From assembly GCA_022566355.1 (NCBI GenBank), contig JADFJB010000001.1, forward strand, positions 234-64,233: a stretch of 64,000 nucleotides of DNA. Direction: 5' to 3'. A model generated the notes under the pieces. That model made no database searches, was not told the origin of the DNA, and saw only the letters and a list, made by a program, of their open reading frames with translations. The position numbers and the translations under genes were made by a program. Shown piece by piece: positions 1,502-51,375 of this stretch. Source of the DNA: Candidatus Zhuqueibacterota bacterium. GTDB taxonomy: Bacteria > Zhuqueibacterota > JdFR-76 > DREG01. Position 1 is the stretch's first letter. Each line of letters begins with the position of its first letter.

Positions 1502-2158
1502 TTAATCTGCTCGATAATACGAAAGAGTGCCAACAATCGTCGTCATCTGATTTGTAACACGCACGTCTTTAAAAGTTGATGCGCGTAACAGTTCAGGCAA
1601 TAAACCCGCAACGTTATCCGCTGTTGTTTCAAAACCATCCAACATCTGTACCAGGTAGAATGCAGCCCGCATCAGGAAATTCTTAGGTTTGCCCCAATCC
1701 ACCAGATGCAGTTCACCGGTAGGTTTGAGCACTCGCTTGATTTCAGCCATAGTACGGAGTTTGTTCTCTCGCGTCAAGTGATGAAAAAATAGGCTCGAAA
1801 CGACTGTGTCAAATTTATTATCTGTATAAGGTAAGTTGAACGACATACCTTGATTTAACTGAATGGCAATATTTGCTTTCACAGCTTTGGCACTGGCGAT
1901 TTTAAGAACGTTGGGGTCACCATCCAGTCCAAAGACATTAGCTTCAGGACAAGCGTTTTTAATTTTCAGGGTGAGTGTAGCTGTACCACAGCCGAGATCG
2001 AGAACTTTATGGCCGGGTAAAATGTTAGTTTGCTCAAGTAGCTTACGCTTGAATTTCTCCCCCCGGATTGTCCAACGAATGAGCGGATCATATATCGAAG
2101 TGAGCCAATTGAATCTTAAGGCAGAGATATAATTTGAATTTCTGGAGGGGGACTTCAT
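1502..2158 (-). CDS. class I SAM-dependent methyltransferase (UbiE/COQ5-like)
   Basis: 218-aa ORF with VLDLGCGTATLT motif I and downstream motif II/III spacing typical of small-molecule methyltransferases. Confidence 0.7.
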   Translation of the reverse strand: MKSPSRNSNYISALRFNWLTSIYDPLIRWTIRGEKFKRKLLEQTNILPGHKVLDLGCGTATLTLKIKNACPEANVFGLDGDPNVLKIASAKAVKANIAIQLNQGMSFNLPYTDNKFDTVVSSLFFHHLTRENKLRTMAEIKRVLKPTGELHLVDWGKPKNFLMRAAFYLVQMLDGFETTADNVAGLLPELLRASTFKDVRVTNQMTTIVGTLSYYRAD

Positions 2159-2453
2159 AAAAATATAGGATGTTATTATAATTGATTTGAAATTAATTTT
2201 TCTTATCTACCAACAAACTGATCTCGCTTGAAAAGTTATCTGCAAACCGACAACCCTTTGGCCTGCAGTTGATTGTGCGTAATATCTGTGATTATCGTAA
2301 ATGCTGCGAAAAAACATAGAAAGTTTAATAAAATAAATTGTACCATCTTTTTTCGATCAGCGTTCTACCAGTTATCTCGCTTATTTGCTCTTTTTTTGAA
2401 ATTACAAAATCCTTTCTCAGAAATGATTAATGATTAATTATTAACCTGATCAA

Positions 2454-2583
2454 TTCATAAACTATGTCACTGGTTTATAATACTGTCATTCCCGAATGCT
2501 CTTATCGGGAATCTTGTTACACAGGCCTATAGACCCCCGATAAAAGCACTCGGGGATGACAGTTTGGTTGTTCTCGGACACCC
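2454..2583. repeat. structured intergenic repeat, copy A (near-identical to copy D at 48554-48745)
   Basis: ttcataaact(a/t)tgtcactggtttataa.actgtcattccc...gggaatcttgttacacaggcc.atagacccccgataaaagcactcgggg.tgaca...ttctcggacaccc is shared with 48554-48745 (copy D has a 20-bp insertion). Nested inverted repeats ctgtcattccc/ggggatgacag and ttatcggg/cccgataa. Confidence 0.7.
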
Positions 2584-2746
2584 TGCCAATTATACCAGTG
2601 GTCTTCATCGCACAGAAACCAGCCACCGCCGTTTTACCGAAAAAAACTACTATTCATTGAGATTAACTATTATCATCCCAATTGAGTATAGTTCTAAACT
2701 CGTATAGACAAGAAATGGCTTAATTGTTCTCTCTTAAAACGTTTTA

Positions 2747-3391
2747 CTATTTATGCTTATGTTCTTCTTCCTCCTCGAGTTCATGCTCAGCTCTAACGTA
2801 TTTAAACCGTAGGTTATTTCTTTTGTCGCCTATTTTTAGACTCACCACAGCATCAAAAGAGTCTACACCTTTTAAATTCACCTCGGCCTGGAAATAGGAA
2901 ACCTTCTCTTTGTCTCCCTCATGTATTTTTCCTTTTTCATGCTCTCCTTCTCCAGCGTGTTGCTTTCCTTCGCCTTCTTTATGCATCCCTTCCTTTTTAT
3001 GCTCTTCTTCCCCAGCGTGATGTTCTCCCTTGCCTTCTTTATGCATCTCCTCCTCATGCTCGGCTTCCTCGCCATGATGCGACTTCAGTTCCTCAGTGCT
3101 AGCAGCTAGCTTCAAAGTCTGCTTCGACTTATCCGGTAGGGTTAAATAGACCACACCTTCTACCTTATCGACTGATACCGGTTTGAGATTTGCGTCCAGA
3201 AGGTAAACGACGATGTTGCCTTTGTTATTTTCTCCCTCTACGACCAGGAACTCAACATGATGATCTCCCATAGAGCGTACCTGGCCGCCATGAGGAGACT
3301 CATGGGCATGCTGTGCCCAGGCCTTGCCTGAGAACAATGCCAGACTCACAAAAATTAAAGAGCCCACAGCTAAAGTTGTTGTTGTTTTCAT
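2747..3391 (-). CDS. secreted His/Glu-rich putative metal-binding protein downstream of czcA-like pump
   Basis: Signal peptide (MKTTTTLAVGSLIFVSLALFSGKAWA). Repeated HKEG.GEHHAGEEEH blocks and a C-terminal EEEEEHKHK tail. Same strand, 170 bp downstream of the RND gene. Confidence 0.6.
   Translation of the reverse strand: MKTTTTLAVGSLIFVSLALFSGKAWAQHAHESPHGGQVRSMGDHHVEFLVVEGENNKGNIVVYLLDANLKPVSVDKVEGVVYLTLPDKSKQTLKLAASTEELKSHHGEEAEHEEEMHKEGKGEHHAGEEEHKKEGMHKEGEGKQHAGEGEHEKGKIHEGDKEKVSYFQAEVNLKGVDSFDAVVSLKIGDKRNNLRFKYVRAEHELEEEEEHKHK
2930..3085. repeat. ~60-bp tandem repeat (about 2.5 units) inside His-rich gene
   Basis: tcctttttcatgctctccttctccagcgtgttgctttccttcgccttctttatgcatccct is followed by a near copy tcctttttatgctcttcttccccagcgtgatgttctcccttgccttctttatgcatctcc and a partial third. 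It encodes the repeated H/E-rich peptide blocks. Confidence 0.7.
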
Positions 3392-6705: not shown

Positions 6706-6725
6706 TCGAATTTAACAAACATATC

Positions 6726-7772: not shown

Positions 7773-7801
7773 TAAAAATTATGCTAAAATGTACTTTCAA
7801 T

Positions 7802-12655: not shown

Positions 12656-15109
12656 TTATAATACCAATTTTCTAAGTCTCAGTGCATTGACGATTACGGA
12701 AATAGAGCTAAAACTCATGGCTGCTGCAGCAATCATCGGGCTAAGTAATATTCCGAAGAACGGATAGAGAATACCGGCTGCAAGGGGCACACCCAAAGAG
12801 TTATAAATAAATGCCCAAAAGAGATTTTGACGAATGTTGCGCATCGTTCCGCGACTGAGTCGCCGAGCCCTTGCGATTCCTCTCAGATCGCCCTTCACGA
12901 GAGTTAATCCAGCGCTTTCGATAGCTACATCTGTGCCAGACCCCATGGCAATGCCCACATGTGCCTGGGCTAGTGCTGGCGCATCATTAATACCATCACC
13001 AGCCATTGCAACAATTCGTCCTTCGGATTGCAGTTGTTTAACCGTTTCATTTTTCATTTGCGGAAGCACTTCAGCTTCGACTTCATCAATTCCCAGAGTT
13101 TTTGCCACAAATTCTGCAGTCGTACGATTGTCGCCTGTCAACATGACGATTTTAATTCCCTCTTTGCGTAATAACTGAATTGCCTCCGGTGTGGATGGTT
13201 TTATCGGATCCGAAACACCCAACAAGCCGGCCGGTTTGTTATCGATTGCCACGAACATGACGGTTTCACCTTTTCGACGCATTTCCTCAGCCCTGTCGGT
13301 CAAATCGCCAAGTTGGATTTCCATTTCTTCAAAAAGTCTGCGATTACCCACAGCGACACTTCGGCCATCGATAGTACCGATAACGCCTTTGCCGGTGATG
13401 GAATCGAAATTTTCAACCGGTTTCAATTCTTGACCTCGTTTCCGTGCGCCGGTTACAATTGCTTCGGCTAATGGATGTTCGCTCGCTAGTTCCAGGCAAG
13501 CTGCCAATCGTAAGACCTCATCATCTCCATAGTCTTGCAAGCTTTCAATGCTGGTAAGCTTTGGCTTTCCTTCAGTAAGCGTGCCGGTTTTATCCACTAC
13601 CAGAGTGTCCACCTTTTCCATAGTCTCCAAAACTTCCGCATTTTTGATGAGGACGCCTGCCATTGCACCTCGCCCAGTGCCAACCATGATGGACATTGGC
13701 GTTGCCAGGCCCAATGCGCAAGGGCAGGCAATTATTAATACAGCAACTGCGTTTACCAGGGCGTAAGCCATACGCGGTTCCGGGCCCAATAATGACCATA
13801 TAATTGCAGTTAGGACACTAATAATTACTACTGCCGGCACGAAGTATGAAGCAACCTTATCTGCTAAGCCCTGAATGGGGGCGCGGCTTCGTTGCGCTTC
13901 ACTGACCATATGCACGATTTGTGCCAATAGGGTATCATTACCGATTCGTTGTGCTTCCATCACGAAGCTCCCTGTCCCGTTGACCGTCCCACCAATCACA
14001 TTCTGTCCGGATTCCTTTTGCACTGGAATGGATTCACCGGTTACCATGGATTCATCAACGGAACTGGTTCCATCGACTACAATCCCATCAACCGGAATTT
14101 TCTCACCGGGCCGAACGCGCAGTTTGTCGCCGCGTTGAACATGCTCCAGGGGAATGTCCTCTTCAACACCGTTATCCCGAACAATTCTCGCAGTATTGGG
14201 CGCCAGCCCCAGCAAGGCTTTTATTGCACTGTTGGTACGGCTTCTGGCCTTCAATTCCAAAACCTGGCCGAGAAGAACCAGTGTTGTGATTACAGCAGCC
14301 GCTTCAAAATAGACCGCTACTTCCCCTTCAGCGCCGCGGAAAGCGGCAGGGAAGATAGCCGGGAATAGCGTTGCTACCACGCTATAGATGTAGGCTACTC
14401 CAGTACCAATTGCGATTAGGGTAAACATATTAAGACTAAAATTAACAACAGAAGCCCAACCGCGTTGAAAAAAAGGCCAGCCTCCCCAGAGGACCACCGG
14501 CGATGCTAATATGAATTGAATCCAAATTAGAAGGTTTGCAGAGAATGCGTTTTGCACCGGCTTGCCAGGTATCACTTCGGACATAGCCAGAAAAAGCACG
14601 GGGATCGAAAGCCCAAAGCTTGCCCAGAATCGTCGGCTCATATCCTTTAGCTCCGGATTTTCCTCTTCATCCAAAACCACGGTTTTGAGTTCTAAAGCCA
14701 TCCCGCAAATCGGACAGATGCCGGGCTTGGATTGTACCACCTCCGGGTGCATGGGGCACGTATATCCTATTCTAGTTTGCTGTGTTACGGGTATTGCGGG
14801 TTCGAGGGACATGCCACATTTTGGACAAGATCCGGGTTCATTCTGTTCCACCTCAGGATCCATAGGGCAGGTATAAGTGACGCCTTTCATTGCTTTTTGA
14901 GTGTCTTGATGATGTTCATGCTCCACCTGTTCATGTTGCTCAACTTTGGTTGTGGTGAATGCTTCCGGATCCGATTTGAATTTTTCCAGGCAGTTTTGAG
15001 AGCAAAAATAGATGGATTCACCTTGGTAAGGAATGAAACCTGCGGCGGATGCGGGAGAAACTTCCATGCCGCAAACCGGATCTAATGTTTTAACTTTTAA
15101 GAATTGCAT
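12656..15109 (-). CDS. copA: copper-translocating P1B-type ATPase with N-terminal TRASH/YHS-like and two CPxxPEV...CPxCGM metal-binding modules
   Basis: CPC transmembrane motif ([13 protein letters not shown]), DKTGTLT phosphorylation site, GDGINDAP. N-terminal CGMEVSPAS...[23 protein letters not shown] and CPMHPEV..CPICGM modules. Confidence 0.9.
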
Positions 15110-15723: not shown

Positions 15724-18700
15724 TTAACTTGACTTCAAAACAGCAGAATCTGCCTGATCGATTTGATCTTCAATATTTTTGTTTAATCCGCGACTTCGCC
15801 ACAAAAAATAAATAGTAGGAATTACTAATAAACATAATATTGTCGTAGAAAATAGCCCTCCAACCATAGGGGCGGCGATTCGTTTCATCACCTGGGAACC
15901 GGCGCCATGGCCCCACATGATTGGTAGCAACCCAAGAATGGTTGTTGAAACAGTCATAACAATTGGCCGAATTCGCATAGCAGTTGCCTTCAGTATGACT
16001 TCTTTAAGATCTTGAAGGGAATGCAATTTGCCTTTCCGGTCATTGTAAGCATGATCCAGGTAGGTTAGCATGATAATGCCAATTTCCGCCGAGAGGCCGG
16101 CAAGCGCTATAAATCCAACTCCAACAGCAACGCTCAGGTTATAGTCGAGCAGATATATAAACCAAATACCACCGACGAGAGAAAACGGCAGCGACAACAT
16201 GACAATAAAGCTTTCTTGTATATTTTTAAAGTTGAGATAAAGCAGCAAAAAAATAATCAACAGGGTTACAGGGAGTACGATACGTAAGCGCTGTTGAGCT
16301 CGCACCATGTATTCATATTGTCCGCTCCAAACCAGGCTGTAGCCTTCAGGGAAATCTACCTCTTCTTCCACGACAATTTTAGCATTTTTCACATAAGTTC
16401 CCACATCAATATCGCGAATATCAATATACAGCCAGGCGGTACGTCGGGCGTTCTCACTTTTGATTACCGACGGACCTTTCTTGAATTCAATGTCTGCAAC
16501 GTAATTGATTGGGATCTGGGCGCCTGTGGGTGTGGCAATAAGCACCCGGCGCAGATCATCCAGATTATCTCTCAACTCCCGGCTGTAGCGCACATTTACC
16601 GGGTAACGCTCCAGACCTTCAACCGTCCACGTCACATTCATGCCGCCAATGGCCGACATTATCACATCCTGAATTGCACCTACTGTTAGGCCATATCTTG
16701 CAGCTTCCTCCCGATTAATGGTAAAATCCAGGTAATTTCCGCCCACAGTCTTGTCGGCAAAAACGCTGAGCGTTCCGGGGACATTTTTTACTACGGTAGC
16801 CACCCTTTGCGCCAGATCTGACAATACTTTAAGATCCGAACCCATAAGCTTAATACCCACCGGCGTCTTGATCCCCGTTGCCAGCATATCGATTCGTGTC
16901 TTGATCGGCATGGTCCATGCGTTTGTTAATCCAGGAAACTGGATGGATTGGTCCAGTTCTTCGATCAGTTTTTCAATCGTCATTCCCTCTCGCCACTCAT
17001 TCTCCGGCTTCAGCGTAATAGTTGTTTCGATCATCGAGAGCGGCGCTGGATCTGTGGCGGTCTCGGCGCGTCCGATTTTACCAAAGACATGGTGCACTTC
17101 CGGAAAGCTTTTGATGATTTTATCTGTCTGCTGCAAAAGCTCTTTTGCCTTGGTAATGCTGATACCTGGATCTGTAGTGGGCATGTAGAGCAAGTCTCCT
17201 TCATTTAGCGGCGGCATGAATTCCGATCCGATTCGCTGGAATGGTAAAATCGAAACAACCATGACTACAATTGCGACAATAATCGTCGACCACTTGAAGC
17301 GTAACACGAAATTGATCAAAGGTCGGTAGATTCGTATGAGAAACCGATTGATGGGGTTGACGTCCTCTGGTTTGATCCGGCCTTTGATCCAAAAACCCAT
17401 TAATACCGGTACAACGGTGATAGCTAACAAGGCAGACGCCGCCATAGCGTAGGTTTTTGTGAATGCAAGGGGGCTAAATAACCTTCCCTCCTGGGCCTGT
17501 AAAGTAAAGACTGGCAGAAAGGAAAGTGTTATGATCAACAAAGAATAAAACAGCGCCGGCCCAACTTCCTTAGCGGCATCGATGATAATAAGCCAATGAT
17601 CTTTCTTGCCGCCGTCTCTTTCGATATGTTTATGCGCATTCTCGATCATCACGATTGCCGCATCAACCATAACACCGATGGCTATGGCAATTCCGCCAAG
17701 AGACATGATGTTTGCAGTAATACCCTGGTAGGACATTATAATAAAAGCGATCAAAATTCCCATTGGCAGTGTAAATATGGCTACAAAAGCGCTGCGGAAA
17801 TGTAACAGAAAGATGATACATACCAGGGCGACGATAATAATTTCCTCGATCAGTTTGCGAGTAAGGTTATCGATTGCTTTATTGATCAACACAGATCGAT
17901 CATATGCTGCTTTGATGGTAACTCCGGGCGGCAGACCTTTCTTTAATTCTTCCATTTTTTCTTTTACAAGATCAATGGTTGCCAATGCATTTCCGCCAAA
18001 CCGCATTACGATGATGCCGCCGACAACTTCCCCCTCGCCATTCCAATCTGCTAAGCCGCGCCTTAATTCCGGACCAATGGAAACATTGGCAATGTTTTTG
18101 ATGAGTATCGGGGTGCCATGATTATCCACGCCCAATGGAATATTTTCCAAATCCTGTATAGACTTAATATATCCCAGTCCGCGCACCATAAATTCTGTTT
18201 CCCCGAATTCGACAAGGCGGCCGCCAACATCGTTATTACTGCTCTTGATCGCCATTCGAACTTTGCTGATAGAAATATTATATGCTGCGAGTTTGTTGGG
18301 ATCGACTTCGACCTGGTATTGTTTTACATAGCCGCCGATACTTGCTACTTCAGCAACTCCCGGTACGCTCATCAATTCATAACGCAGATACCAGTCCTGG
18401 ATCGAACGCAGCTGCTGCAGATCATACTGGTTGCCGCCATCCAACACGTATTCATAGATCCAACCTACGCCGGTTGCATCGGGTCCAAGTGTTGGATTTA
18501 CTCCCTGTGGTAGACGGCTGGAAACGAAATTCAAATATTCTAAAACCCGGCTGCGCGCCCAGTATAGATCAGTGCCATCCTCAAATATGATATAGACAAA
18601 TGAAAGGCCAAAGAAAGAATACCCCCGTACAGCCTTGGCAAAAGGCACCGCCAACATAGCGCTGGTAAGTGGATAGGTCACCTGGTCTTCCACCAACTGC

Positions 18701-18873
18701 GGCGCCTGTCCTGGATATTCCGTAAGAATGATTACCTGGACGTCGCTTAAATCCGGTATTGCGTCCACTGGCGTGTTGAGCAATTTATAAATACCGCCGA
18801 GAGCGATCATTATTGTGAAAATAATAACTAAAAAACGATTTTTTACTGAAGCTTCTATGATTCGTTCTATCAT
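15724..18873 (-). CDS. cusA: Cu(I)/Ag(I) HME-RND efflux permease CusA
   Basis: 1049 aa. AIPDLSDVQVIILTEYPGQAPQLVEDQVTYPLTSAMLAVP...FEDGTDLYWARSRVLEYLN...LGPDATGVGWIYEY is near-colinear with E. coli CusA by recall. Confidence 0.9.
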   Translation of the reverse strand: MIERIIEASVKNRFLVIIFTIMIALGGIYKLLNTPVDAIPDLSDVQVIILTEYPGQAPQLVEDQVTYPLTSAMLAVPFAKAVRGYSFFGLSFVYIIFEDGTDLYWARSRVLEYLNFVSSRLPQGVNPTLGPDATGVGWIYEYVLDGGNQYDLQQLRSIQDWYLRYELMSVPGVAEVASIGGYVKQYQVEVDPNKLAAYNISISKVRMAIKSSNNDVGGRLVEFGETEFMVRGLGYIKSIQDLENIPLGVDNHGTPILIKNIANVSIGPELRRGLADWNGEGEVVGGIIVMRFGGNALATIDLVKEKMEELKKGLPPGVTIKAAYDRSVLINKAIDNLTRKLIEEIIIVALVCIIFLLHFRSAFVAIFTLPMGILIAFIIMSYQGITANIMSLGGIAIAIGVMVDAAIVMIENAHKHIERDGGKKDHWLIIIDAAKEVGPALFYSLLIITLSFLPVFTLQAQEGRLFSPLAFTKTYAMAASALLAITVVPVLMGFWIKGRIKPEDVNPINRFLIRIYRPLINFVLRFKWSTIIVAIVVMVVSILPFQRIGSEFMPPLNEGDLLYMPTTDPGISITKAKELLQQTDKIIKSFPEVHHVFGKIGRAETATDPAPLSMIETTITLKPENEWREGMTIEKLIEELDQSIQFPGLTNAWTMPIKTRIDMLATGIKTPVGIKLMGSDLKVLSDLAQRVATVVKNVPGTLSVFADKTVGGNYLDFTINREEAARYGLTVGAIQDVIMSAIGGMNVTWTVEGLERYPVNVRYSRELRDNLDDLRRVLIATPTGAQIPINYVADIEFKKGPSVIKSENARRTAWLYIDIRDIDVGTYVKNAKIVVEEEVDFPEGYSLVWSGQYEYMVRAQQRLRIVLPVTLLIIFLLLYLNFKNIQESFIVMLSLPFSLVGGIWFIYLLDYNLSVAVGVGFIALAGLSAEIGIIMLTYLDHAYNDRKGKLHSLQDLKEVILKATAMRIRPIVMTVSTTILGLLPIMWGHGAGSQVMKRIAAPMVGGLFSTTILCLLVIPTIYFLWRSRGLNKNIEDQIDQADSAVLKSS

Positions 18874-18971
18874 GTTAGATTTCTCCGTGTGTCCATTGTA
18901 CTGAAAGATTCCATTTCTTCGAGAGACTGTGTGAAAATGGGAATAATTTTTATTACGATTCTAAAAGAACG

Positions 18972-19080
18972 CATGTCATTCCATAGGCTGCGTCCTGAGT
19001 GAAGTCGAAGGAAATCTTGTTATGGTTTGTGTAAGGTGTTGTTTTTTAACAAAGATCCAGTCACACGACGGGATGACATG
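18972..19080. repeat. structured intergenic repeat, copy B
   Basis: Terminal inverted repeat catgtcattcc ... cgacgggatgacatg. Shares ggaaatcttgtta with copies A/D, cgacgggatgacat with copy D, and core cctgagtgaagtcgaagg with copy C. Confidence 0.55.
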
Positions 19081-19168
19081 TGTCGGACTTTTTAAATTAT
19101 GTGATGATTCCATTAAACTTCGTGGTTAAAATAGTTTTCACACAGTAATCAGCGATAGAATAGCTGTT

Positions 19169-20716
19169 TCAGTGATTATGTTCTTTCGATTCCATGTTCT
19201 GCATGTTTTCCATCTCTTTCTTTTCTTTTGTTGCGCTATCTTGCGTATCCATTGGCTGTGTTTTTTTCTGTTTCTCAGCTAACAATTTTTGAATAACTTC
19301 TTGTAAGCGGCTTTCACTGTCAAGTAGAAACTGCGCTGAAATAACAACTTCTTCATTTCCAATGAGGCCGGAGATCACGCGGATTTTTCCGTTATCTCCT
19401 TCTTCTCCTAGTTTTACCTGCCGTGGTTCAAATTTTCCTTCACCCCGAACAACAAAAATCACATTTCGAGTGCCAGACCGTATGACCGCTTCGGATGGTA
19501 TGATTACAGCATCTTTTATGGTAGGAGTCTGGATTTCTATATTCGCATACATACCAATCTTTAGCTCCAGAACCGGATTGGAAAAATCAAGGCGGACATG
19601 AGCAGTCCGTGATTTCTCGCGAAGATATGGGTAGATATAAGCGACTCTACCATGGAAAATCTTTCCAGGCAGGTAAGAAAGCTCCATTTTTGCTTCCGCC
19701 CCTTCCCGAATCCATGGCAATTCATAGTCATAAATACTTGCGTGAACCCAGATACTGGACAAATCTGCAATTTCATATAAATTTGTACCCGCCTTAACAT
19801 GAAGGCCTTCAACAGCATTCTTTTGCACCACCATTCCACTTGCCGGCGATTCCAGCCTGATTGTTTTCTTTACTTCGCCGGTCTTTTCTAATCGATCAAT
19901 TTCTGATTTAGGAACATCCCAGTAGAGAAGACGTTGTCGGCTTGATTCAAAAAGTGACTCCGAGTTTCTTGTAATCGAATCAAAAGTGCTCTTGGCTAGT
20001 TTCTTCCGGTTCTCAAGAGCCAACAAGAATTCTTGCTGGGTGATCACTAGCTCCGGTGAATAAATTTCGAGGAGAGGCTCTCCTTTACGAACCATCTCTC
20101 CTACGTAATTCACAAATAGCTTTTCGATCCAACCGGAAATTTTGGTGGTTACAATATATAGTTTTTCTTCATTGTACTGGATCTTTCCCACCGTTCGGAT
20201 GGAACGGGTAAAATCTCCGCGTTCAACCATGGTGGTTCGAACACCCATGTTTTGTACAGTTACCGGGTCAATTTTTATATAACCACCAGCGCCAAGAGTT
20301 GTCTGGTCTTCATAGACTGGGATCAAGTCCATTCCCATCTTCGATTTCCCTGACTCGTCGTATATTTCAGTTGGATCCATGGGAGCTTGCCAATACAATA
20401 CTTTGCGCTCACCTTTCGATTGTGTATCTTGAATTTCAGATTCCCCAGAAGTAATCCTTACCGGAACAAGATCCATCTTGCATATAGGACATTGACCGGG
20501 TTCATGCAACAGAACTTCCGGATGCATTCCGCATGTCCATAACTGGCTCTCTTCCTGATGTTCCATCGCTGCCATTTCTGTGGTTTTTTCCTCTGAACCA
20601 CAACTGGATAAGCTTACAATTAACCCGAAAAGAAGTGGAATGGAAAGAAAGGTTAATGCCCTTACTGATAAGTTTGATTTATTTTTCATTCTGTACTCCA
20701 TTAATTTGATTGTCAT
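19169..20716 (-). CDS. cusB: efflux RND periplasmic adaptor CusB-like with N-terminal CxxPEV...CPxC metal-binding module
   Basis: 515 aa with signal/lipo region, then CGMHPEVLLHEPGQCPICKMDLV, then MFP beta-barrel/lipoyl domains. 4-bp overlap with upstream TolC gene. Ends in TGA. Confidence 0.8.
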   Translation of the reverse strand: MTIKLMEYRMKNKSNLSVRALTFLSIPLLFGLIVSLSSCGSEEKTTEMAAMEHQEESQLWTCGMHPEVLLHEPGQCPICKMDLVPVRITSGESEIQDTQSKGERKVLYWQAPMDPTEIYDESGKSKMGMDLIPVYEDQTTLGAGGYIKIDPVTVQNMGVRTTMVERGDFTRSIRTVGKIQYNEEKLYIVTTKISGWIEKLFVNYVGEMVRKGEPLLEIYSPELVITQQEFLLALENRKKLAKSTFDSITRNSESLFESSRQRLLYWDVPKSEIDRLEKTGEVKKTIRLESPASGMVVQKNAVEGLHVKAGTNLYEIADLSSIWVHASIYDYELPWIREGAEAKMELSYLPGKIFHGRVAYIYPYLREKSRTAHVRLDFSNPVLELKIGMYANIEIQTPTIKDAVIIPSEAVIRSGTRNVIFVVRGEGKFEPRQVKLGEEGDNGKIRVISGLIGNEEVVISAQFLLDSESRLQEVIQKLLAEKQKKTQPMDTQDSATKEKKEMENMQNMESKEHNH

Positions 20717-28058: not shown

Positions 28059-28796
28059 CTAAAGTCTAGTAAGACTGGAAGTTAGATATAATTCAAGTTT
28101 CCACATGCGAAATGCCATTTGTCGTAAGCTTAGACTCACCAAAAGGCTAATAATTGTGAAAACAAGAAATTTCAAAAGTTGTGGCGAAAAATAAATCCAG
28201 GATTGGTTGGGAAATTGCTGAAAAACTTCAATATACATCAATATTATGAGTTGAATTGACAAAAGCAGGATAGCACAACTAACCCCCATGCTAAACCGAA
28301 ATCTCCTGTGTACCCTTTGAGCTTGTTTAAGTACAGCCGGACACCTTTCGCCAAATTTATCAGCGATAAATGTACGGTAAATCACCAGTCGATTCCAGGG
28401 GCTTGCAATTTGTAATGTTTCAATTATTCCAGATAACTGTTCCAACTCATTTTCAATATCAGAATTAGCATCAACTGTCAAATGATCGATTGTAGGAGAT
28501 GCAAATTTATAAATAATAATGTTAACTCGATCCAATATTTTTTGTCTAAAGTTTTTGCCTCTTTTTAGTTTTGCATGTGAATACCGGTAAAGTGCAACGT
28601 CGATATAAGAATTAATGATCAGACCAAATGTATAAGTTAAAATGAATCCCAGAAGAATAACAATAACCTTCTGATTCCAAAAACCTGATTTAAAATCAGG
28701 CCAATGCCATAGACCTACAGAAAAGAGTATAACTACTCCAGGACAAACATAGGTGAAAAACTCAAAAAGGTCGATCTTGTCCAGTATATCCTTCAT
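28059..28796 (-). CDS. hypothetical polytopic membrane protein
   Basis: 245 aa with ~5 predicted TM helices and no recognisable motif. Flanked by the two STAS copies as direct repeats. Confidence 0.5.
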   Translation of the reverse strand: MKDILDKIDLFEFFTYVCPGVVILFSVGLWHWPDFKSGFWNQKVIVILLGFILTYTFGLIINSYIDVALYRYSHAKLKRGKNFRQKILDRVNIIIYKFASPTIDHLTVDANSDIENELEQLSGIIETLQIASPWNRLVIYRTFIADKFGERCPAVLKQAQRVHRRFRFSMGVSCAILLLSIQLIILMYIEVFQQFPNQSWIYFSPQLLKFLVFTIISLLVSLSLRQMAFRMWKLELYLTSSLTRL

Positions 28797-30279: not shown

Positions 30280-30783
30280 TCACATATATTTCAATCCCAA
30301 TCCAATGTAAATAACCATAGCTGCGAACCCTATATTTACCATCAAAAGAAAGAAAATTTTTCGGCGAATTTTTTTATAGGATTCCGGAAACGATTCTAAC
30401 TTTTGATCATAGCTTCTAGCCATGGAGATTAACCTTGGACCGTACACCGAATTTTGTATTCCCTGGCTAACAATAATCAGTGTCACTAGAATTAGTTTAA
30501 AAACTAAAAAATTGATGTAATTTGAACTAAAGTTAAAATTACGCATATAGCTGACATTAATTAAATTGAAGATCCCAGTCAAAATAATCACTCCAATTGC
30601 TTCCCATTGAACCGTCTTAAACCGGTTATTTATTTTTATTAAGACTTCAGCAAATTCTCTGGTTGAAGCAAAGTGATTCTTTAAGACCGGACTTATAACC
30701 AACACAAAACAAATAGTGCCACCTACCCAGACGATGACAGCCAGGATGTGCAGCCACAGGATAAAAGTGCCGAATGTAAACAT
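30280..30783 (-). CDS. CopD-family-like 4-TM membrane protein
   Basis: 167 aa. LWLHILAVIVWVGGTI is the H..W.GG signature shared by CopD/DUF2214/HemJ-like small membrane proteins. Confidence 0.45.
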   Translation of the reverse strand: MFTFGTFILWLHILAVIVWVGGTICFVLVISPVLKNHFASTREFAEVLIKINNRFKTVQWEAIGVIILTGIFNLINVSYMRNFNFSSNYINFLVFKLILVTLIIVSQGIQNSVYGPRLISMARSYDQKLESFPESYKKIRRKIFFLLMVNIGFAAMVIYIGLGLKYM

Positions 30784-30792
30784 TATATGATT

Positions 30793-30940: not shown

Positions 30941-31453
30941 CTACATCCCCATCTGCTCTCTAACTTCTTCCAAGACCGTAGCATTGATTTCCTTAAAACC
31001 ATTCTCCATTGCATGCTGCTCAATTCTTTTTTTAATCATGGAGCGAACAAAAGAAGGGATTCTATCCATTCGTTCTTTGGCTTCATCCGTCCAAATAAGC
31101 TCACTATCGGATTCATATGCTTCTTCAACCATTCCGGTAAATGGACATTTTGAAGTGGGACTTGAATTTTCAGGTGCTTGCTCAACATCTTGGTTTTCGG
31201 TTGATAGCTCAGTATCTTCTTTTTGATAAGTCAATGAGCTTCTAATTTTTTCCATTGGCTCGGCTGGTACAGACCTGCCGCCAATTTTTACATCGAGGGA
31301 TCGTACCATCTGGGTTTCCATCTGGTTTGTTAGCATAGCGATGTCTTTGCCGCATTTCGGGCAATGAAAGATAACCGTCATCGAGCCGTTTTCAGGGCCT
31401 GAGGTCTCTTTCAGCTTCATTGCCTCATCGCATTCAACACATAAAAATTTCAT
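30941..31453 (-). CDS. zinc-ribbon + PCP_red (protochlorophyllide-reductase B C-terminal-like) domain protein
   Basis: N-terminal CVEC...CPKCG zinc ribbon. C-terminal LIWTDEAKERMDRIPSFVRSMIKKRIEQHAMENGFKEINATVLEEV closely matches the ChlB/BchB C-terminal (PF08369-type) domain by recall. Confidence 0.7.
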   Translation of the reverse strand: MKFLCVECDEAMKLKETSGPENGSMTVIFHCPKCGKDIAMLTNQMETQMVRSLDVKIGGRSVPAEPMEKIRSSLTYQKEDTELSTENQDVEQAPENSSPTSKCPFTGMVEEAYESDSELIWTDEAKERMDRIPSFVRSMIKKRIEQHAMENGFKEINATVLEEVREQMGM

Positions 31454-37053: not shown

Positions 37054-37698
37054 TTAGTTCAACACAACATACCTTTCCAACCTGGAAACCTCCTTTTCGT
37101 CCACGTACTTACCAATTTCACGACGAAATTGCTTTAGGTTTCTATATGGGCGGTACTCTTTAAATTCATGAAGCATCCGTTTACCAACTCCGGGAATACT
37201 CAGGATGTCTTCGTCACTTGCCGTATTCAGATTGATTGGGACAAAAACATACTGTTCCAGGCGCGCCAATTCCTTATCGTTCACATATTTTCCGATCTCT
37301 CTTCGGAATTGCGCCAGGGCCTTATAGGGACGATACTCCTCGAACTCATGGGCCATACGTTTACCTACACCGGGAACCAGCCAAACTTCTTTTCGGGAAG
37401 CTGTGTTGAGGTTAATTGGGATAAATAATGTAACATACAATTTGGACAATGAGTCTTTGTGTACTGACTGACTGAGTAATGTGTCCAATTCGGTCATTCT
37501 CAAAAAAGGCCGGTTTTCCAAAATATCCTTTACAAGCTTTTTATTGAGTTGAGGAAGTGAAAGCAGCTCCTTTTCCCCTGCCCGATTCGGATTTAGAACA
37601 TTTTTGTTGTTGCCAACCTGACTAAATGCGGCACATACAGTAATAATTACAAAAATGAAAACCATCATTATTGTAAATAAAGATTTATTTGAAGTCAT
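37054..37698 (-). CDS. helix-hairpin-helix repeat protein (ComEA-like), internally duplicated
   Basis: Signal peptide. Repeated INLNTAS..E.L..PGVGKRM.HEF motifs (HhH). A ~180-bp DNA duplication (about 37075-37255 and 37255-37435) yields two near-identical protein modules. Confidence 0.65.
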   Translation of the reverse strand: MTSNKSLFTIMMVFIFVIITVCAAFSQVGNNKNVLNPNRAGEKELLSLPQLNKKLVKDILENRPFLRMTELDTLLSQSVHKDSLSKLYVTLFIPINLNTASRKEVWLVPGVGKRMAHEFEEYRPYKALAQFRREIGKYVNDKELARLEQYVFVPINLNTASDEDILSIPGVGKRMLHEFKEYRPYRNLKQFRREIGKYVDEKEVSRLERYVVLN

Positions 37699-38215
37699 CT
37701 AAATTCTCCCGTTTTAATTTGGATTCTTTTTGGTTTATTCGAAAAACCGGATGTCTAAAAGTGTAAACCGATCCCAGCAGACCAAGCTGGATCATTATGC
37801 CTGGAGCCAAAAAAGGTGTTGCACCTTTGATCGATTTCCAGAAAAGTTCTAATCCGGATAAAGAAGGATACATCTCTAACTCGAATTCTACATTAACTCG
37901 ATAATGTAAGATAACGCCAACACAGCCACTAATCATAAATAATATCATCACTATCTGAAGCACTCGCAAAACCATAGAAACACGTTTGAAAGCAAACCAG
38001 CCTAGAACTACCAGACTACCGCAAATAAGAATAAGAGGCACAAATTGCCAGTAGACTTCAAAATGTTCTAGTAGCAGAAGTTCCACACCAGCGCCCAGTA
38101 AACCGGCAACAAATATGAGTAAAAGAAGATTTCGAATAATCTTACCAGTTGTGAAATTGCTGTGTTTGTCAGATGAGGTATTGTTCATTAGATAATGTAC
38201 ATAATACATTTTCAA
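37685..38215 (-). CDS. hypothetical 4-TM membrane protein
   Basis: 176 aa, hydrophobic. Divergent from the TetR gene. Confidence 0.45.
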   Translation of the reverse strand: MKMYYVHYLMNNTSSDKHSNFTTGKIIRNLLLLIFVAGLLGAGVELLLLEHFEVYWQFVPLILICGSLVVLGWFAFKRVSMVLRVLQIVMILFMISGCVGVILHYRVNVEFELEMYPSLSGLELFWKSIKGATPFLAPGIMIQLGLLGSVYTFRHPVFRINQKESKLKRENLDDFK

Positions 38216-38417: not shown

Positions 38418-39065
38418 ATGGAGCAACTTGACACGAGAACGAGACTGTTAGATGTGGCCGAAGAATTATTTGCAGAGAAGGGAATCGGATCAACTTCCCT
38501 GCGAAAAATTATTGCTGAAGCAGGCGTCAACCTCGCATCTATTCATTACCATTTTGGCTCCAAGGAAGCCCTTGCCTGGGAGGTTTTTGCCCGGCGTATT
38601 AAACCCGTTAATGCGGAACGGCTACAGCGACTCGACAGAATTGAGGAAAGATCCGGTGAGACACCTCCAAACCTTGAAGAATTGATCAGGGCATTCATCG
38701 AACCGGCAATCCGGATTAAGTTTGATGAACCTGAACGCACCAAACTTATTCTTAGGCTGGTTGCTCAATTACAATCGGATTCCGGGAATTTAGGTGACCA
38801 TTTTGTTGATCTATTTGAAGAAGTAGCAACGCGATTCATAGCTGCATTTCAAGCCGCTCTTTCCCAGCATTCCCATGCAGAACTTTATTGGCGTTTTAAA
38901 TTTATGCTCGGCGTCATGCATATGATCATGGCACAGCCTCCGGTGCAGGAAAGTAAAATATTTTCACCCCCGGAATTGGATCTGGAGAGTATTTTAGCCC
39001 ACGTAATTCCGTTCCTGGTAGCAGGTTTTAAAACACCTACTTTAAATGTCTTAAAACAGGAATAA
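38418..39065 (+). CDS. TetR/AcrR-family transcriptional regulator
   Basis: N-terminal HTH RTRLLDVAEELFAEKGIGSTSLRKIIAEAGVNLASIHYHFGSKEAL. Confidence 0.85.
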   Translation: MEQLDTRTRLLDVAEELFAEKGIGSTSLRKIIAEAGVNLASIHYHFGSKEALAWEVFARRIKPVNAERLQRLDRIEERSGETPPNLEELIRAFIEPAIRIKFDEPERTKLILRLVAQLQSDSGNLGDHFVDLFEEVATRFIAAFQAALSQHSHAELYWRFKFMLGVMHMIMAQPPVQESKIFSPPELDLESILAHVIPFLVAGFKTPTLNVLKQE

Positions 39066-46603: not shown

Positions 46604-46730
46604 GTGTCATCAGCCACCCTGAGCGCAGTCGAAGGGTGACGAGTTTTTGTTGTCATTGAACTTAATGGCTATTAATGACAAAGTGTCTTAGACAGCAGCT
46701 TTAAGCATAATGGTTGTCATTGAATATTGC
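46604..46730. repeat. structured intergenic repeat, divergent copy C
   Basis: tgtcatcagccaccctgagcgcagtcgaagggtgacga shares the cctgag.g.agtcgaagg core with copy B. Followed by gtcattgaa direct repeats. Confidence 0.35.
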
Positions 46731-47471: not shown

Positions 47472-48524
47472 TTAATAGAAATTATCCACATCAAACACAT
47501 TCTTCATGGGTTTATTAGAAAGGAATCGGTTTAGATTATCGCAGAACAGATCGGTCAATCGGCGGTTCTCGCGATCACTGGTACTGGCGGAGTGGGGACT
47601 GATCAACACATTTGGCATTTCCCATAAGGGGCTATTTTCCGGTAGCGGTTCGTTCGCAAAAACATCGAGACAAGCACCACCCAACTGACCGGACCGTAAT
47701 GCTTCAATTAAATCGGGTTCATCCACCAACGCACCCCGTCCGATATTAATAAAAATAGCGCCTCGGGGCATTAACGAAAATTCTTCCGCCCCCAGCATGG
47801 CATCGGTTTTATCCGTATGTGGTGCGCATAAAACCAGGTAGTCGGCCGATCTTAAAGCGGAGTGAAGTTCGTTGGGAGCATAAAGACGATCCATGTTGAG
47901 GGCAGAAGGATCGATGCCGGAAATTCTCCGCTTTACGCCAATCACATACATGCCTAGCGTTTTGGCACAACGTGCGACTTCTGAACCAATTGCACCTGCG
48001 CCGATAATAAGCAGGGTTCTCTCAACCAGGTCGGTTCCGGCAAAGCGCTGCCAGTGTTTGCGCTTCTGGCCGTGAGCCATGGTAAAAAATCCCCGGCTGA
48101 ATAGCGTCATAGCCATTACACAAAATTCGGTGAGTGGCTGTGCATGAATTCCAGTTGCCGTTGTTATTACAGTGTGGGGCAAACGAATATGGTATTGCCA
48201 GCGTTTTACGAGCTGTCCGATTCCGGCACTAGTGGCTTGTATCCAGAGAACATGAGGGGCCAATTCAGGTAAGTCTTCAAGATGGGTGCGGTCAAAATCA
48301 AATAATATATCCGCTCTTTGTAAAAGTTTTTGCCAACGGTTTTCCTGGTCAGGTGTCCTTGTAAATGGATTGCCAATATGGTCAGCAGCATAACGAGGAG
48401 TGGGAAGCAACTCCGGTTCATATAGTACATTCAACCGTTTGCTGACAGATCGAATTCGATCCACATGCTCTTCTTCCAAGTAGCTGGCAATGACTAGATT
48501 CAATATGGATTTGTCTGAAAGCAT
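47472..48524 (-). CDS. D-isomer-specific 2-hydroxyacid dehydrogenase family protein
   Basis: Rossmann GAGAIGSEVARCAKTLGMYV. Catalytic R/E/H context (NIGRGALVDE...SPHSA). Confidence 0.85.
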   Translation of the reverse strand: MLSDKSILNLVIASYLEEEHVDRIRSVSKRLNVLYEPELLPTPRYAADHIGNPFTRTPDQENRWQKLLQRADILFDFDRTHLEDLPELAPHVLWIQATSAGIGQLVKRWQYHIRLPHTVITTATGIHAQPLTEFCVMAMTLFSRGFFTMAHGQKRKHWQRFAGTDLVERTLLIIGAGAIGSEVARCAKTLGMYVIGVKRRISGIDPSALNMDRLYAPNELHSALRSADYLVLCAPHTDKTDAMLGAEEFSLMPRGAIFINIGRGALVDEPDLIEALRSGQLGGACLDVFANEPLPENSPLWEMPNVLISPHSASTSDRENRRLTDLFCDNLNRFLSNKPMKNVFDVDNFY

Positions 48525-48553
48525 TCGTTTATGGGGTTAATTAACTCGATCTA

Positions 48554-48745
48554 TTCATAAACTTTGTCACTGGTTTATAAAACTGTCATTCCCGTCCCGC
48601 CTGGGCGGGATTATCGGGAATCTTGTTACACAGGCCCATAGACCCCCGATAAAAGCACTCGGGGGTGACAATTTTGGGGTTCTCGGACACCCCGAAAGTA
48701 TTCGGGAACTACACTCTGTAGCATCCTGCGCGACGGGATGACATT
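48554..48745. repeat. structured intergenic repeat, copy D (long form)
   Basis: ~85-90% identical to copy A over ~130 bp with a 20-bp GC-rich insertion (gtcccgcctgggcgggatta). Outer inverted repeat tgtcattcccgtc ... gacgggatgacat. Confidence 0.7.
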
Positions 48746-48786: not shown

Positions 48787-51375
48787 CTACCTACTCTTTT
48801 TCTTTCCACTCATTTTCTTTTCACGGTTCATTTCAATGATGTCCACTGTGTAAGCATAATTTCCAATCAAATGTTTGCAAAAATAATCCGATCTTAACCA
48901 GAAAAAATATTCGTTCATATCGCCATAACCATGTCTCTGTCCCGGAAATACAAAGAAATCAAAGCGTTTGTTTGCTTTGATTAAAGCATTCGCCAACCGA
49001 ATTGTGCCGGCAGGATGAACGTTGTTATCGATATCGCCAGTGGTTATTAACAAACGTCCTTTTAAATTTTTAGCAATTTCCGAATTCTTCTCGATATCGT
49101 ATTCAAATTTGATGTTGCCGTCTTTGTCCGTAACCTCTTTGACGCCATGGTGTTTTTCACTCCACCAGCGATTATAGACATTATTTTCATGATTTCCTGA
49201 TGAAGAAACGGCCACTTTAAAGAAATCCGGGTAAACAAGCATTGCGGCTGTTGACATAAAACCACCGCCCGAATGACCAAAGATCCCCACTTTGTCGATG
49301 TCGATAAATGGATACCGATCCGCTAGTTGTTCGATGGCTGCTTTTTTGTCTGCCAATCCATAATCACGGAGATTGCCATATCCATAGTTGTGGTACCATT
49401 TTGAGCGGCTTGGATGACCGCCGCGGTTGCCCACAGTAATGACTATAAATCCAAACTGGGCCAGCCGATCGGTTCTGTCCATCCGGGTAGAAAAAGATTT
49501 GCTGACCGACTCAGTTTGGGGACCGGGATATACATAGGCAATGATCGGGTATTTCCTGGTGGAATCGAAATCGAAAGGTTTATATATGACGCCGTACAAA
49601 TCCGTAATACCATCATCTGCTTTCACTCGGTAGGGTTTCGGAAATTTGTAGCCGGCCTGCATCAATAATGACAGATCTGCAGTCTCCAGGTCCACAATTT
49701 TGTTGCCGCGATTATCCCGCACTTCTGATTTTGGCGTTGTATCCACACTGGAATACGTATTGACAAAAAAGCGATTGGAGTCGCTGGGGCGAGCCGTGTG
49801 GTTATAGTTGCCAGGATTCAACAGCGTAAGTCCCGTACCGTTAAAATTTACTTTATATAAATGCCTGTAGTAAGGGTCTTCATTGGATTCGTGGGCATTC
49901 GCTGTAAAATAGAGAACCCGGTTTTCAGCATCGATCCCGGAGATGTTTTCACTGTGAAAAGGACCTGAAGTAATTTGATTCTTTAGATTACCGTTTCCAT
50001 CATAAAGATAAAAATGAGCCCAACCATCCCGTTCAGACCAGTGGATCAATTCTTGGCCGTTGTTGACAAGTCCAAGTCGGCGAGTTTCCACATAAGTGTT
50101 GAGCCTTTCCTCAATCAAAACTTTGACTTCGCCAGTGGCTGCATCCGCAACACAAATATCGATCCGGTGCAGGTCGCGACTGGTTCTGGTGAAGTAAACT
50201 TTATCCGGAGTTTCTGCTAACCAAAGACTGGGTCTATTGTCATCATCACGATTCTTCGCTAATCGCGCTGCGGTAATGATGGAAACCTGCTGATCTTTAA
50301 ATTCATCTTCCTGGACAACTATCTTTTCTTCCGAGGATAAATCAAAAACCAGGAGCTCAACCTGGGAAGCTTCCGATTCACCTGGCATGTTATATTTATA
50401 GGTTTCCAATGTGGGCCTGGGATTTGCTACAGAATTGATAACCCATAAATCCTTAACCTCACGACTGTCGGAACGAGTCATTGCAAACTTTTTTGAATTG
50501 CGGGACCAGACGATCCGAACTGATTTTCGTTTATCTTTGTTCTTTACCTTGTCAACATTAGTCTCACCTCGGCTCCGGCCCTGGTAGCTATAATACTCTT
50601 CACCATCAGTCGTCAAAGGGTGCTCCACTATTGTAGAATCCTCTTTTGTAGAATCCTCTTCGCTCTCGACGGCTTTCAGGTAATTCTCCATGTCCATCCA
50701 GAACAGGTTGTAGTTTTTGGAAAAGATAACAACTGAACTATCCGGAGCTATAGATGCCCAATCCGGTCTTTTCTTCGGTTTTTTATAATCTTCTACGATG
50801 GTTAGTTTTCCTGTGGAAAGCCTGTATTCAAAAAAGAAGATCTTTTTCTTGGGTTTTTTATTTTTTACTTTTTTCTTGTCATCCTTTTTTTCTTCCTTTT
50901 TTTGATCTTCTTTTTTCTCTTCCTTTTCCTCTTTTTCTTCTTTCTTCTCATCTTGCGAACTTTCTACTTCAAAGAAGATTGCCGTTTCATTCTTTATGAA
51001 TTTGATTTTATCAATTGGAAGGTGTTTGGCATCATAAGGGTCTTTGGTTATCCGAGTCAGCATGGCAGCTATTTTAACATTATCGAAAATTGGGCGCTTC
51101 GTTCGTTTAACCGGATCAACTATGTAAAATGTCTTGCCTTCGCTAGTTTCGAAGGAGTACCAAAATCGGTTACTTAGCTTAAGCCAATGTGGATCCACGG
51201 ATGTACTAAAAACCATTTTTTTCATCTTGTTTGGCGAAAACTTAGAAGCCAGCAGGTAGTTGGCTTTATCGATGGGTTTATTTTGGCCTGATAAACTTGC
51301 AGATTGAAATACAAGGGCTGTCAACGCGATTACAATAATAATACTTCTTTTCATAGCATGTTCCTTCCTAATCAA
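48787..51375 (-). CDS. S9-family serine peptidase (DPP-IV/prolyl-oligopeptidase type) with Lys/Glu-rich low-complexity insert
   Basis: Signal peptide. N-terminal beta-propeller region. GHSGGGFMS nucleophile elbow with downstream Asp/His. Insert DEKKEEKEEKEEKKEDQKKEEKKDDKKKVKNKKPKKK encoded by a ttcttcc/ttttt simple repeat (about 50860-50960). Confidence 0.85.
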   Translation of the reverse strand: MIRKEHAMKRSIIIVIALTALVFQSASLSGQNKPIDKANYLLASKFSPNKMKKMVFSTSVDPHWLKLSNRFWYSFETSEGKTFYIVDPVKRTKRPIFDNVKIAAMLTRITKDPYDAKHLPIDKIKFIKNETAIFFEVESSQDEKKEEKEEKEEKKEDQKKEEKKDDKKKVKNKKPKKKIFFFEYRLSTGKLTIVEDYKKPKKRPDWASIAPDSSVVIFSKNYNLFWMDMENYLKAVESEEDSTKEDSTIVEHPLTTDGEEYYSYQGRSRGETNVDKVKNKDKRKSVRIVWSRNSKKFAMTRSDSREVKDLWVINSVANPRPTLETYKYNMPGESEASQVELLVFDLSSEEKIVVQEDEFKDQQVSIITAARLAKNRDDDNRPSLWLAETPDKVYFTRTSRDLHRIDICVADAATGEVKVLIEERLNTYVETRRLGLVNNGQELIHWSERDGWAHFYLYDGNGNLKNQITSGPFHSENISGIDAENRVLYFTANAHESNEDPYYRHLYKVNFNGTGLTLLNPGNYNHTARPSDSNRFFVNTYSSVDTTPKSEVRDNRGNKIVDLETADLSLLMQAGYKFPKPYRVKADDGITDLYGVIYKPFDFDSTRKYPIIAYVYPGPQTESVSKSFSTRMDRTDRLAQFGFIVITVGNRGGHPSRSKWYHNYGYGNLRDYGLADKKAAIEQLADRYPFIDIDKVGIFGHSGGGFMSTAAMLVYPDFFKVAVSSSGNHENNVYNRWWSEKHHGVKEVTDKDGNIKFEYDIEKNSEIAKNLKGRLLITTGDIDNNVHPAGTIRLANALIKANKRFDFFVFPGQRHGYGDMNEYFFWLRSDYFCKHLIGNYAYTVDIIEMNREKKMSGKKKSR

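Follow-up and report, generated by a model that had tools for sequence, protein, structure and literature searches.

What are the hairpin-forming repeats that recur between the genes of an uncultured bacterium: a new kind of RNA, a mobile element peculiar to its lineage, or members of a family already described? The question is raised by a 64,000-nt stretch of DNA from a Candidatus Zhuqueibacterota bacterium (contig JADFJB010000001.1, positions 234 to 64,233; referred to here, at its full length, as the window), in which a first-pass annotation made from the sequence alone had described four intergenic repeats, which we call A, B, C and D, as copies of one novel, lineage-specific family. Our analysis showed that the repeat family is real and evolutionarily dynamic, and that it is neither new nor lineage-specific. 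The window contains two clear copies, A and D, with four clear hairpin units, one degenerate relative, B, and one element, C, of another module family. Our preferred reading, to which we give a probability of about 0.68, is that A and D, together with B in a decayed state, are gene-less tail-to-tail doublets of the NTS-type hairpin unit, that is, of the pan-bacterial Ssn-related motifs (SRM), and would be cut by a cognate GIY-YIG nuclease of the Ssn type encoded elsewhere in the genome.

Elements A and D are made up as follows (window coordinates; loci in other assemblies are given L numbers):

2440..2585, minus strand: composite element A, a doublet with conserved flanks, 91-93% identical to D and 88% to the copy in L058 over 139 nt; long hairpin with z of -6 to -8.
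2485..2513, plus strand: unit A1, GTC-ATTCCCGA-ATGCTCTTA-TCGGGAAT-C, which fits the unit pattern; single-stranded DNA hairpin of -6.9 kcal/mol, z -4.5.
2514..2531, no strand: 18-nt spacer of doublet A, TTGTTACACAGGCCTATA, delimited by reading the sequence; the differences between strain contig L139 and the window start in it.
2532..2560, minus strand: unit A2, GTC-ATCCCCGA-GTGCTTTTA-TCGGGGGT-C, which fits the unit pattern; z -3.3.
48540..48745, minus strand: composite element D, a doublet with conserved flanks and a third, degenerate unit, 83% identical to the L058 copy over 208 nt.
48585..48622, plus strand: unit D1, which fits the unit pattern and has a palindrome nested within its loop; single-stranded DNA fold of -12.4 kcal/mol, z -4.3.
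48595..48610, plus strand: the nested 16-nt palindrome TCCCGCCTGGGCGGGA, a canonical NTS core, which in the strain alignment takes the place of the AATGTTC of L002 and L003.
48641..48669, minus strand: unit D2, GTC-ACCCCCGA-GTGCTTTTA-TCGGGGGT-C, which fits the unit pattern; z -4.9.
48721..48742, minus strand: degenerate unit D3, GTCATCC-CGTCGCGCA-GGATG-C, recognised by reading the sequence and conserved in L058; its fold is not significant.

Comparison of the window with itself bore out the homology of A and D: 2440-2494 is 91% identical to 48540-48594, and 2502-2583 is 93% identical to 48611-48692, the homology beginning 14 nt upstream of the limits set in the first-pass annotation. Between these blocks A has 7 nt (AATGCTC) and D has 16 nt instead, and the stretch of D up to 48745 has no counterpart in A and is present in the L058 copy. 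The core of both elements consists of two hairpin units of about 29 nt, GTC-AYYCCCG-loop-CGGGRRT-C, placed tail-to-tail on opposite strands with GTCAT outward and 18 nt between them. The unit pattern GTCAYYCC-N4-30-GGRRTC occurs four times in the window (A1, A2, D1 and D2) against 0.14 expected, a number reached by none of 100 shuffled sequences, and a generic search of the window for GTC-A...T-C hairpins gave no further convincing units. As single-stranded DNA, the A doublet folds with z-scores of -7.5 and -6.6 on its two strands and the single units with z-scores of -3.3 to -4.9. Outside the doublet, A, D and the related copies conserve CAGGSTGTCCGRGAAC... on one side and GTTTTATAAACCAGTGACAAAGTTTATGAAT...GTTAAT on the other; these flanks define a composite, some 150-205 nt in length, at the level of the lineage. 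Each of the four loci is placed between genes of one strand, as had been claimed, here the minus strand; the sense orientation of A is that of its neighbours 2747..3391 and 1502..2158, and D stands between a peptidase S9 gene (48787..51375) and a 2-hydroxyacid dehydrogenase gene (47472..48524), ending 16 nt before the ATG of the latter.

As a separate observation, the extended 5' flank GTCCGAGAAC-N6-GTCAT, which accompanies A2 and D2, also precedes a different type of unit, GTCATCCCCGAGCGCTGCGAAGGATGG, on an unrelated soil-metagenome contig (L129, 2270-2400); this could be a chance match or a wider conserved flank.

The units have a close parallel in Neisseria, described in Chenal et al. (Nat Commun 2025, PMC11893778). 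There, a 28-nt NTS (CGTCATTCCCGCGMAVGCGGGAATCYRG) includes the classical dRS3 repeat ATTCCC-N8-GGGAAT and is bound as single-stranded DNA by SsnA, a 94-aa single-domain GIY-YIG nuclease that nicks it a few nucleotides upstream and is inactive on double-stranded DNA, RNA and the reverse strand, with no RNA binding. Mutagenesis traced cleavage to the three bases that precede the palindrome on its 5' side, and binding to a palindrome of the ATTCCC/GGGAAT type and, above all, to the C directly after it; the identity of the loop is dispensable and loop extensions are tolerated. Motifs of this kind, the SRM, flank ssn homologues in many phyla, and whether the unit-ssn-unit arrangement is or was a mobile element is an open question raised in the same paper (PMC11893778). 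In the window, the same features recur: GTC stands directly 5' of the stem in A1, A2, D1, D2, B1, B2 and D3; the palindrome is ATTCCCG/CGGGAAT in A1 and D1, with compensated variants in A2 and D2; and the base directly 3' of it is C in A1, A2, D1, D2, B1 and B2, and G in D3. The claim of a novel family is therefore not supported, since the units carry the determinants of the published NTS, dRS3 and SRM hairpins (PMC11893778 and PMC1797815). The finding becomes ordinary because it matches this described repeat family and not an Rfam family, none of which was matched at the gathering score; nor is there a sign of an origin from tRNA, the only ARAGORN call lying elsewhere in the window.

The distribution of the unit likewise extends far beyond one lineage. 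In a pan-bacterial scan with one genome per species (GTDB) and with the inner 20 nt only, CCCGARTGYTYTTATCGGGR, the unit turned up at 120 loci or more, spread over more than 20 phyla, where about 17 matches would be expected by chance on our own estimate. The matches listed come from Binatia, Desulfobacterota, Planctomycetota, Omnitrophota, Nitrospirota, Ignavibacteriota, Bacteroidota, Calditrichota, KSB1, Elusimicrobiota, Gammaproteobacteria (Vibrio, Iodobacter) and others. Two features that lay outside the search pattern, GTCA at -6 to -3 and RTC after the stem, are each present in 107 of the 129 matches listed, and the outer two stem pairs covary among these (TT/AA in 54, TC/GA in 46, CC/GG in 18, non-complementary in 11). 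Both the further copies and the compensatory stem changes that the first-pass annotation had named as checks of a family were thus found, and its restriction to one lineage was not borne out. An inverted partner unit follows within 60 nt on the tail side in 55 of 122 matches listed (45%), compared with a head-side partner in one, a direct partner in none, and none at random control positions; the commonest spacers measured among these matches are 19 and 27 nt, and those of the window doublets are 18 nt. Given this prevalence of tail-to-tail partners across bacteria, the doublets of the window represent the standard arrangement of a pan-bacterial element. Vibrio superstes offers an observation of its own: L060 carries, at 600-1500, four tandem repeats of about 199 bp, and in each of them such units form one doublet (GTCATTGCCGAAGTC...GGCAATC and GTCATCCCCGAGTGCTCTTATCGGGGATC).

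In other genomes, the units lie beside genes for small GIY-YIG proteins. L105 (Melioribacteraceae) contains a 94-aa single-domain GIY-YIG open reading frame (ORF; PF01541, E 2.5e-16) with the same long-loop unit as in the window on both sides, in inverted orientation and 16-36 nt away. The family of this protein has 2321 matches at E <=1e-10, the top ones about 94-99 aa long and 60-75% identical across phyla. The proteins of L148 and L156, 68-74% identical to that of L105, each have inverted short-loop units on either side of their gene, which take up the whole intergenic space and in L156 are canonical NTS-like. In L070 (Bacteroidota) the unit is separated by 5 nt from the ATG of the GIY-YIG gene that follows it. 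With GTCAT outward and the GIY-YIG gene in the middle, the unit-gene-unit sets have the geometry of the doublets that lack a gene. In L070 we also observed, at 2500-3250, three tandem copies of the unit with the first 60-100 nt or so of the GIY-YIG gene, ahead of the intact gene; the middle copy has a degenerate unit and no recognisable gene fragment, and a further unit in direct orientation follows the intact gene. This array looks like repeated abortive copying at the unit.

The identity of this gene also bears on a second explanation, namely that the window elements belong to the REP/REPIN class and owe their mobility to a RAYT, a Y1 transposase like those of IS200/IS605. REPs carry a GTAG-type conserved 5' word, and the word here is GTCA. 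In 36 ORFs of the window, among them almost every large one, Pfam scans revealed no Y1 or other transposase, and the gene found between inverted units elsewhere encodes a GIY-YIG protein. We thus regard mobilisation by a RAYT as very improbable, even though the inverted doublets with long hairpins, the intergenic sites and the mosaic clusters recall REPINs and BIMEs, a resemblance also remarked on in PMC11893778.

Several results weigh against assigning the window elements to the Ssn system. No GIY-YIG gene was found in the 64-kb window by regular expression or phmmer, and GIY-YIG ORFs occur in three of the 120 motif-bearing loci listed, a count that by itself is no enrichment. A search of solved structures with the L105 protein gave no match, and GIY-YIG nucleases are not known to join strands. 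The NTS consensus with up to 3 mismatches and the exact 20-bp dRS3 repeat (ATTCCC-N8-GGGAAT) both had zero matches in the window, as had the SRM expression HGTCWYN(0-2)YYVSBRHN(0-5)WNVSBRGN(0-2)RNCYNB published in PMC11893778, for which shuffled sequences average 0.19. The last expression misses the window units because their loop, at 9-11 nt, is longer than the 7 nt or less that it allows between the arms. The window units are filed here as NTS/SRM-like, on account of their determinants and context and not of the published pattern.

Elements B and C are less alike than had been proposed. Their features are:

18972..19080, no strand: element B, a degenerate mosaic doublet of B1 (18975-19016, plus strand) and B2 (19054-19077, minus strand); fold not significant.
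18994..19011, plus strand: module CCTGAGTGAAGTCGAAGG in the loop of B1, common to C.
46604..46730, no strand: element C, a different hairpin-module element with CACCCT-GAGCGCAGTCGA-AGGGTG at 46615-46638 and TTGTCATT...AATGACAA at 46650-46681; not a copy of A or D.

B occupies the 295-nt spacer between a cusB-like (19169..20716) and a cusA-like gene (15724..18873) in an operon of the cusC-cusB-cusA type (OEP-MFP-RND). It shares GGAAATCTTGTTA with A1 and D1 (a 12/13 block) and, on its B2 side, ATGTCATCCCGTCG with D3 (a 14-nt exact block), and it is laid out like A and D, with GTCAT outside, ATC inside and terminal inverted repeats of 10-11 nt. C follows an OsmC-like gene at a distance of about 45 nt. 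It is without the GTCATTCC/GGGATGAC termini and has in common with B only the 18-nt module CCTGAG-N-G-N-AGTCGAAGG. This module occurs twice in the window against 0.19 expected and has only one further match in 843 kb of SRM-bearing loci, and therefore represents a separate module family; a literature search for CCTGAG...CGAAGG gave no match. The claim of mosaic relatives thus stands for B and not for C, and that of termini shared by all four copies fails at C. The terminal word GTCATYCC is by itself weakly enriched in the window (9 against 3.6 expected, with 2 of 100 shuffles reaching 9), while the full unit pattern is strongly so. The predicted long stem-loops, significant in A and D, are no better than shuffled sequence in B (z -0.6 and -0.8) and are not significant against it in C.

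These results raise the possibility that the four loci are not one family at all, A and D being a single duplicated segment and B and C resembling them through chance short GC-rich words. The folding of B and C would agree with this, as would a mean column identity of 53% in the four-way alignment and the weak enrichment of GTCATYCC by itself. On the other side, B has its exact 14-nt and 12/13 blocks and the architecture of A and D, relatives have an insertion hot spot at its site, and the module that joins B and C is found twice against 0.19 expected. For the four loci as a set we find this explanation doubtful; for C relative to A and D it probably holds.

Turnover of the elements among strains and relatives is extensive. 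The cusB-cusA spacer of 295 nt that holds B in the window measures 183 nt in a relative with a 94%-identical CusA, where it carries a different doublet with GTGTCRT termini and nested TCCCGSC...GGGA mini-hairpins; at 92% CusA identity (L142) it is 116 nt long and filled by a GCCACGAAG-type repeat, and at 82% it is a repeat-free 54 nt. By CusA, the best relatives of the window organism that carry a name are Calditrichaeota. At A, the strain contig L139 matches the window exactly for about 330 nt up to A2, then shows 5 differences, which are distributed over the spacer, A1 and the beginning of the tail, and from about 10 nt beyond A1 (window position ~2475) it carries a LigD-polymerase-like gene instead of the methyltransferase gene 1502..2158. 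This break in synteny identifies A as a recombination junction. At D, the loop of D1 has two alleles, AATGTTC and the 16-nt palindrome TCCCGCCTGGGCGGGA, among strains more than 99.5% identical; the GC-rich insertion with its own hairpin that the first-pass annotation had pointed out is thus real, 16 nt long and polymorphic. The same nested form is also found in an Omnitrophota metagenome-assembled genome (L051), and L156, L096 and L016 have canonical units with this core. As the palindrome is the core of pre-existing NTS units, the polymorphism of D1 is a swap between unit variants and not a fresh insertion. Farther away, the related genome L058 (GCA_964464595.1, labelled Deferribacteres) has the full composite between unrelated genes, and L078 has a half-variant of it between convergent genes. 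The view of the repeats as a REP/MITE-like, hairpin-forming intergenic family with mosaic relatives is supported, and they behave as insertional, recombining DNA.

A metagenome scan for the composite, GTCCGRGAAC-N5-12-GTCAYCCCCGAG, returned 11 loci, which we rejected as essentially all chance matches in coding sequence; it yielded no extra copies.

Could the elements nevertheless act mainly as RNA, the long hairpin being transcribed along with its neighbours and stabilising an mRNA, providing a site for processing or attenuation, or working as a small or cis-regulatory RNA? The orientation relative to co-directional flanking genes is shared by A, D and the copy in L058, B lies inside an operon, and D and the L139 variant end 16 and about 20 nt before a start codon, respectively. 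The sense-strand RNA fold of A is also the stronger one (-65.6 against -56.6 kcal/mol, z -8 against -6), but this asymmetry comes down to 5 positions (4 G-U pairs against 1) and is not significant; it stems from the pairing of an AT-type with a GC-type unit, and we rejected it as evidence for an RNA. Each doublet, moreover, places one unit on each strand, and the unit occurs in unrelated contexts across many phyla, in L078 between convergent genes. In Rfam, where nothing reached the gathering score, the best match at E <=1 was to a microRNA hairpin model, at 29.8 bits where 70 are required; scans of the regions around A and D found no terminator, and the promoter-like matches of the A region are missing from D. 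SsnA, for its part, does not bind RNA (PMC11893778), and the rapid replacement of the elements by unrelated repeats at the same site speaks against a conserved cis-regulatory role. The alternative of a non-coding or cis-regulatory RNA, which the first-pass annotation had put forward, therefore finds no support from Rfam, from promoters and terminators, or from the strands of the units, and we judge an RNA role to be unlikely.

The preferred reading, doublets of an NTS-type unit cut by an Ssn, draws directly on the anatomy of the elements, the pan-bacterial distribution of the unit, the covariation of its stem, the GIY-YIG genes to which it is linked in other genomes and the turnover just described. 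From these we infer the presence of an Ssn in this organism, its cutting of the units and a causal role of the cuts in their turnover. In such a scheme, replication, transformation or repair would expose the locus as single strands on which each unit folds. The folded unit would then be bound, and the DNA beside it nicked, by a cognate nuclease of the Ssn type whose gene lies elsewhere in the genome. Repair and recombination among the dispersed copies could then swap loops and replace one element by another, and the same processes could add elements to intergenic spacers or remove them and join different genes to one element.

As the geometry of the doublet is that of the units flanking ssn, the doublet is best read as a non-autonomous or empty unit-ssn-unit cassette. 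It is possible, though we advance this only tentatively, that the doublet derives in this way from a pan-bacterial cassette that spreads by nicking of single-stranded DNA and copy-repair, in a homing-like manner driven by the GIY-YIG nuclease and with no transposase. If so, the doublets of this lineage would also be portable junctions for the exchange of downstream genes (methyltransferase against LigD-like at A), Ssn and SRM would amount to selfish elements of a kind not recognised before, complete with derivatives resembling MITEs, and would account for a large part of the hairpin repeats that uncultured bacteria carry in their genomes. The geometry of the doublets thus provides a concrete handle on the open question of unit-ssn-unit mobility. 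For the window alone the point is a modest one, that these are repeats of a known type rather than a new RNA. More generally, the SRM expression published in PMC11893778 misses a very common long-loop form that usually occurs as tail-to-tail doublets with the geometry of the ssn flanks, and the elements mark sites of assembly breaks and strain differences.

The remaining observations concern other parts of the window. Its first 22,000 nt (1-22000) are a dense metal-resistance island, within which A and B lie, with two CusCBA-type RND systems (3565-9094 and 15724-22011), a P-type ATPase with HMBD/YHS domains (12656..15109), DUF302 and DUF2231 proteins, and a 214-aa His/Glu-rich protein (2747..3391) with internal 60-nt repeats. 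In the intergenic region 12210-12655 of the island, a 28-nt inverted repeat of the TTAGCCACGGATT type (12288-12466; 82% complementary) surrounds 123 nt; it is a different hairpin-repeat family, to which the GCCACGAAG-type repeat in the cusB-cusA spacer of L142 is related. Inverted arms of 38 nt (79% complementary) at 30786-30939, between the CopD-like gene 30280..30783 and 30941..31453, are built from 36-nt CTAGGGGCTAGAGG-type tandem units and have only a sub-threshold microRNA-like match in Rfam.

The OsmC-like gene upstream of C (46776-47237, minus strand; PF02566, E 5.9e-15 when read through) has an in-frame TGA at 47040-47042, presumably at the position of the first catalytic Cys of the OsmC/Ohr active-site motifs (..AATGG-TGA-LTGTF..). 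The motif of the second Cys (DYCPV) is undamaged, the TGA is followed at about 22 nt by the start of a GC-rich hairpin of 7 bp, and gene callers end the protein at 65 aa in all strains; the gene either encodes a selenocysteine-containing OsmC-like protein or is a nonsense pseudogene.

Other repeats are direct or tandem. Two copies of a 230-nt direct repeat (27654-27883 and 28947-29176; 82% identical, 1293 nt apart) surround ORF 28059..28796 (245 aa, no Pfam match). ORF 54367..57267 (966 aa, no Pfam match) contains, at 54925-55272, a tandem 174-nt (58-aa) repeat with 94% identity; L002, L004 and L005 have a 665-aa version, with alignments breaking at the repeat, and the copy number therefore varies among strains. 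A (TATTTGG)n microsatellite (47413-47468) adjoins the 3' end of 47472..48524, and about 4 copies of a 17-nt tandem repeat, GATTAAAGCATTCGTTT, lie at 38286-38353, upstream of the TetR gene 38418..39065; breaks in the strain alignment at both suggest length variation. Finally, the ARAGORN call, a 93-nt tRNA-Thr(GGT) at 37724-37816 on the minus strand, is inside ORF 37685..38215, has no match to the Rfam tRNA model at the gathering score and is probably a false positive.

How, then, do the elements compare with known systems? Their small size, terminal inverted repeats, lack of coding capacity and polymorphic presence or absence are those of MITEs such as the Correia elements. Unlike these, they end in autonomous hairpins and have no demonstrable target-site duplication: CAGG stands at both ends of the composite in A, L058 and L078, but cannot be called as a duplication because it is the same word in all copies and is embedded in an extended palindrome in L078. 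Nor is a DDE transposase partner known for them. With REP, REPIN and BIME elements they share a short palindromic unit, the inverted doublet as the apparent replicating form, a location between genes or within operons and a single-copy gene flanked by repeats; they differ in the conserved flanking word and in the associated protein, which is a GIY-YIG nuclease and not an HUH Y1 transposase (RAYT).

The closest relatives belong to a unit family that is already known. It comprises the dRS3 repeat, reportedly described in 2000, the neisserial intergenic mosaic elements or NIMEs (PMC1797815) and, from 2025, NTS and SRM (PMC11893778). The elements resemble dRS3 and the NIMEs in their terminal ATTCCC/GGGAAT inverted repeat, in short repeats bracketing variable RS segments, in mosaic structure, in dynamic strain variation and in the tie to recombination and divergence of neighbouring genes (PMC1797815). 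The centre of dRS3 is 8 nt long, compared with 13 nt in A1 and 22 nt in D1; the NIMEs form arrays bracketing RS segments of 19-214 bp, where here there are isolated doublets and one three-unit cluster (D); and the host is an uncultured, probably Calditrichota-like environmental bacterium and not Neisseria. With NTS and SRM (PMC11893778) the likeness goes further, to the GTC 5' word, the ATTCCC...GGGAAT-type stem, the 3' C, the intergenic location, the distribution across phyla and, in other genomes, the inverted units that flank 94-95-aa single-domain GIY-YIG genes. What sets the window units apart is a loop of 9-11 nt (ATGYTYTTA) instead of about 4-7, the stem variants ATC/GAT and ACC/GGT, a window without an ssn gene and the tail-to-tail doublet, which the sections of that paper considered here do not describe as the prevalent form. 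Set against the same sections, three things appear to be additions to a family otherwise already described: the long-loop form of the unit, the frequency with which it forms tail-to-tail doublets in many phyla, and the composite of this Calditrichota-like lineage.

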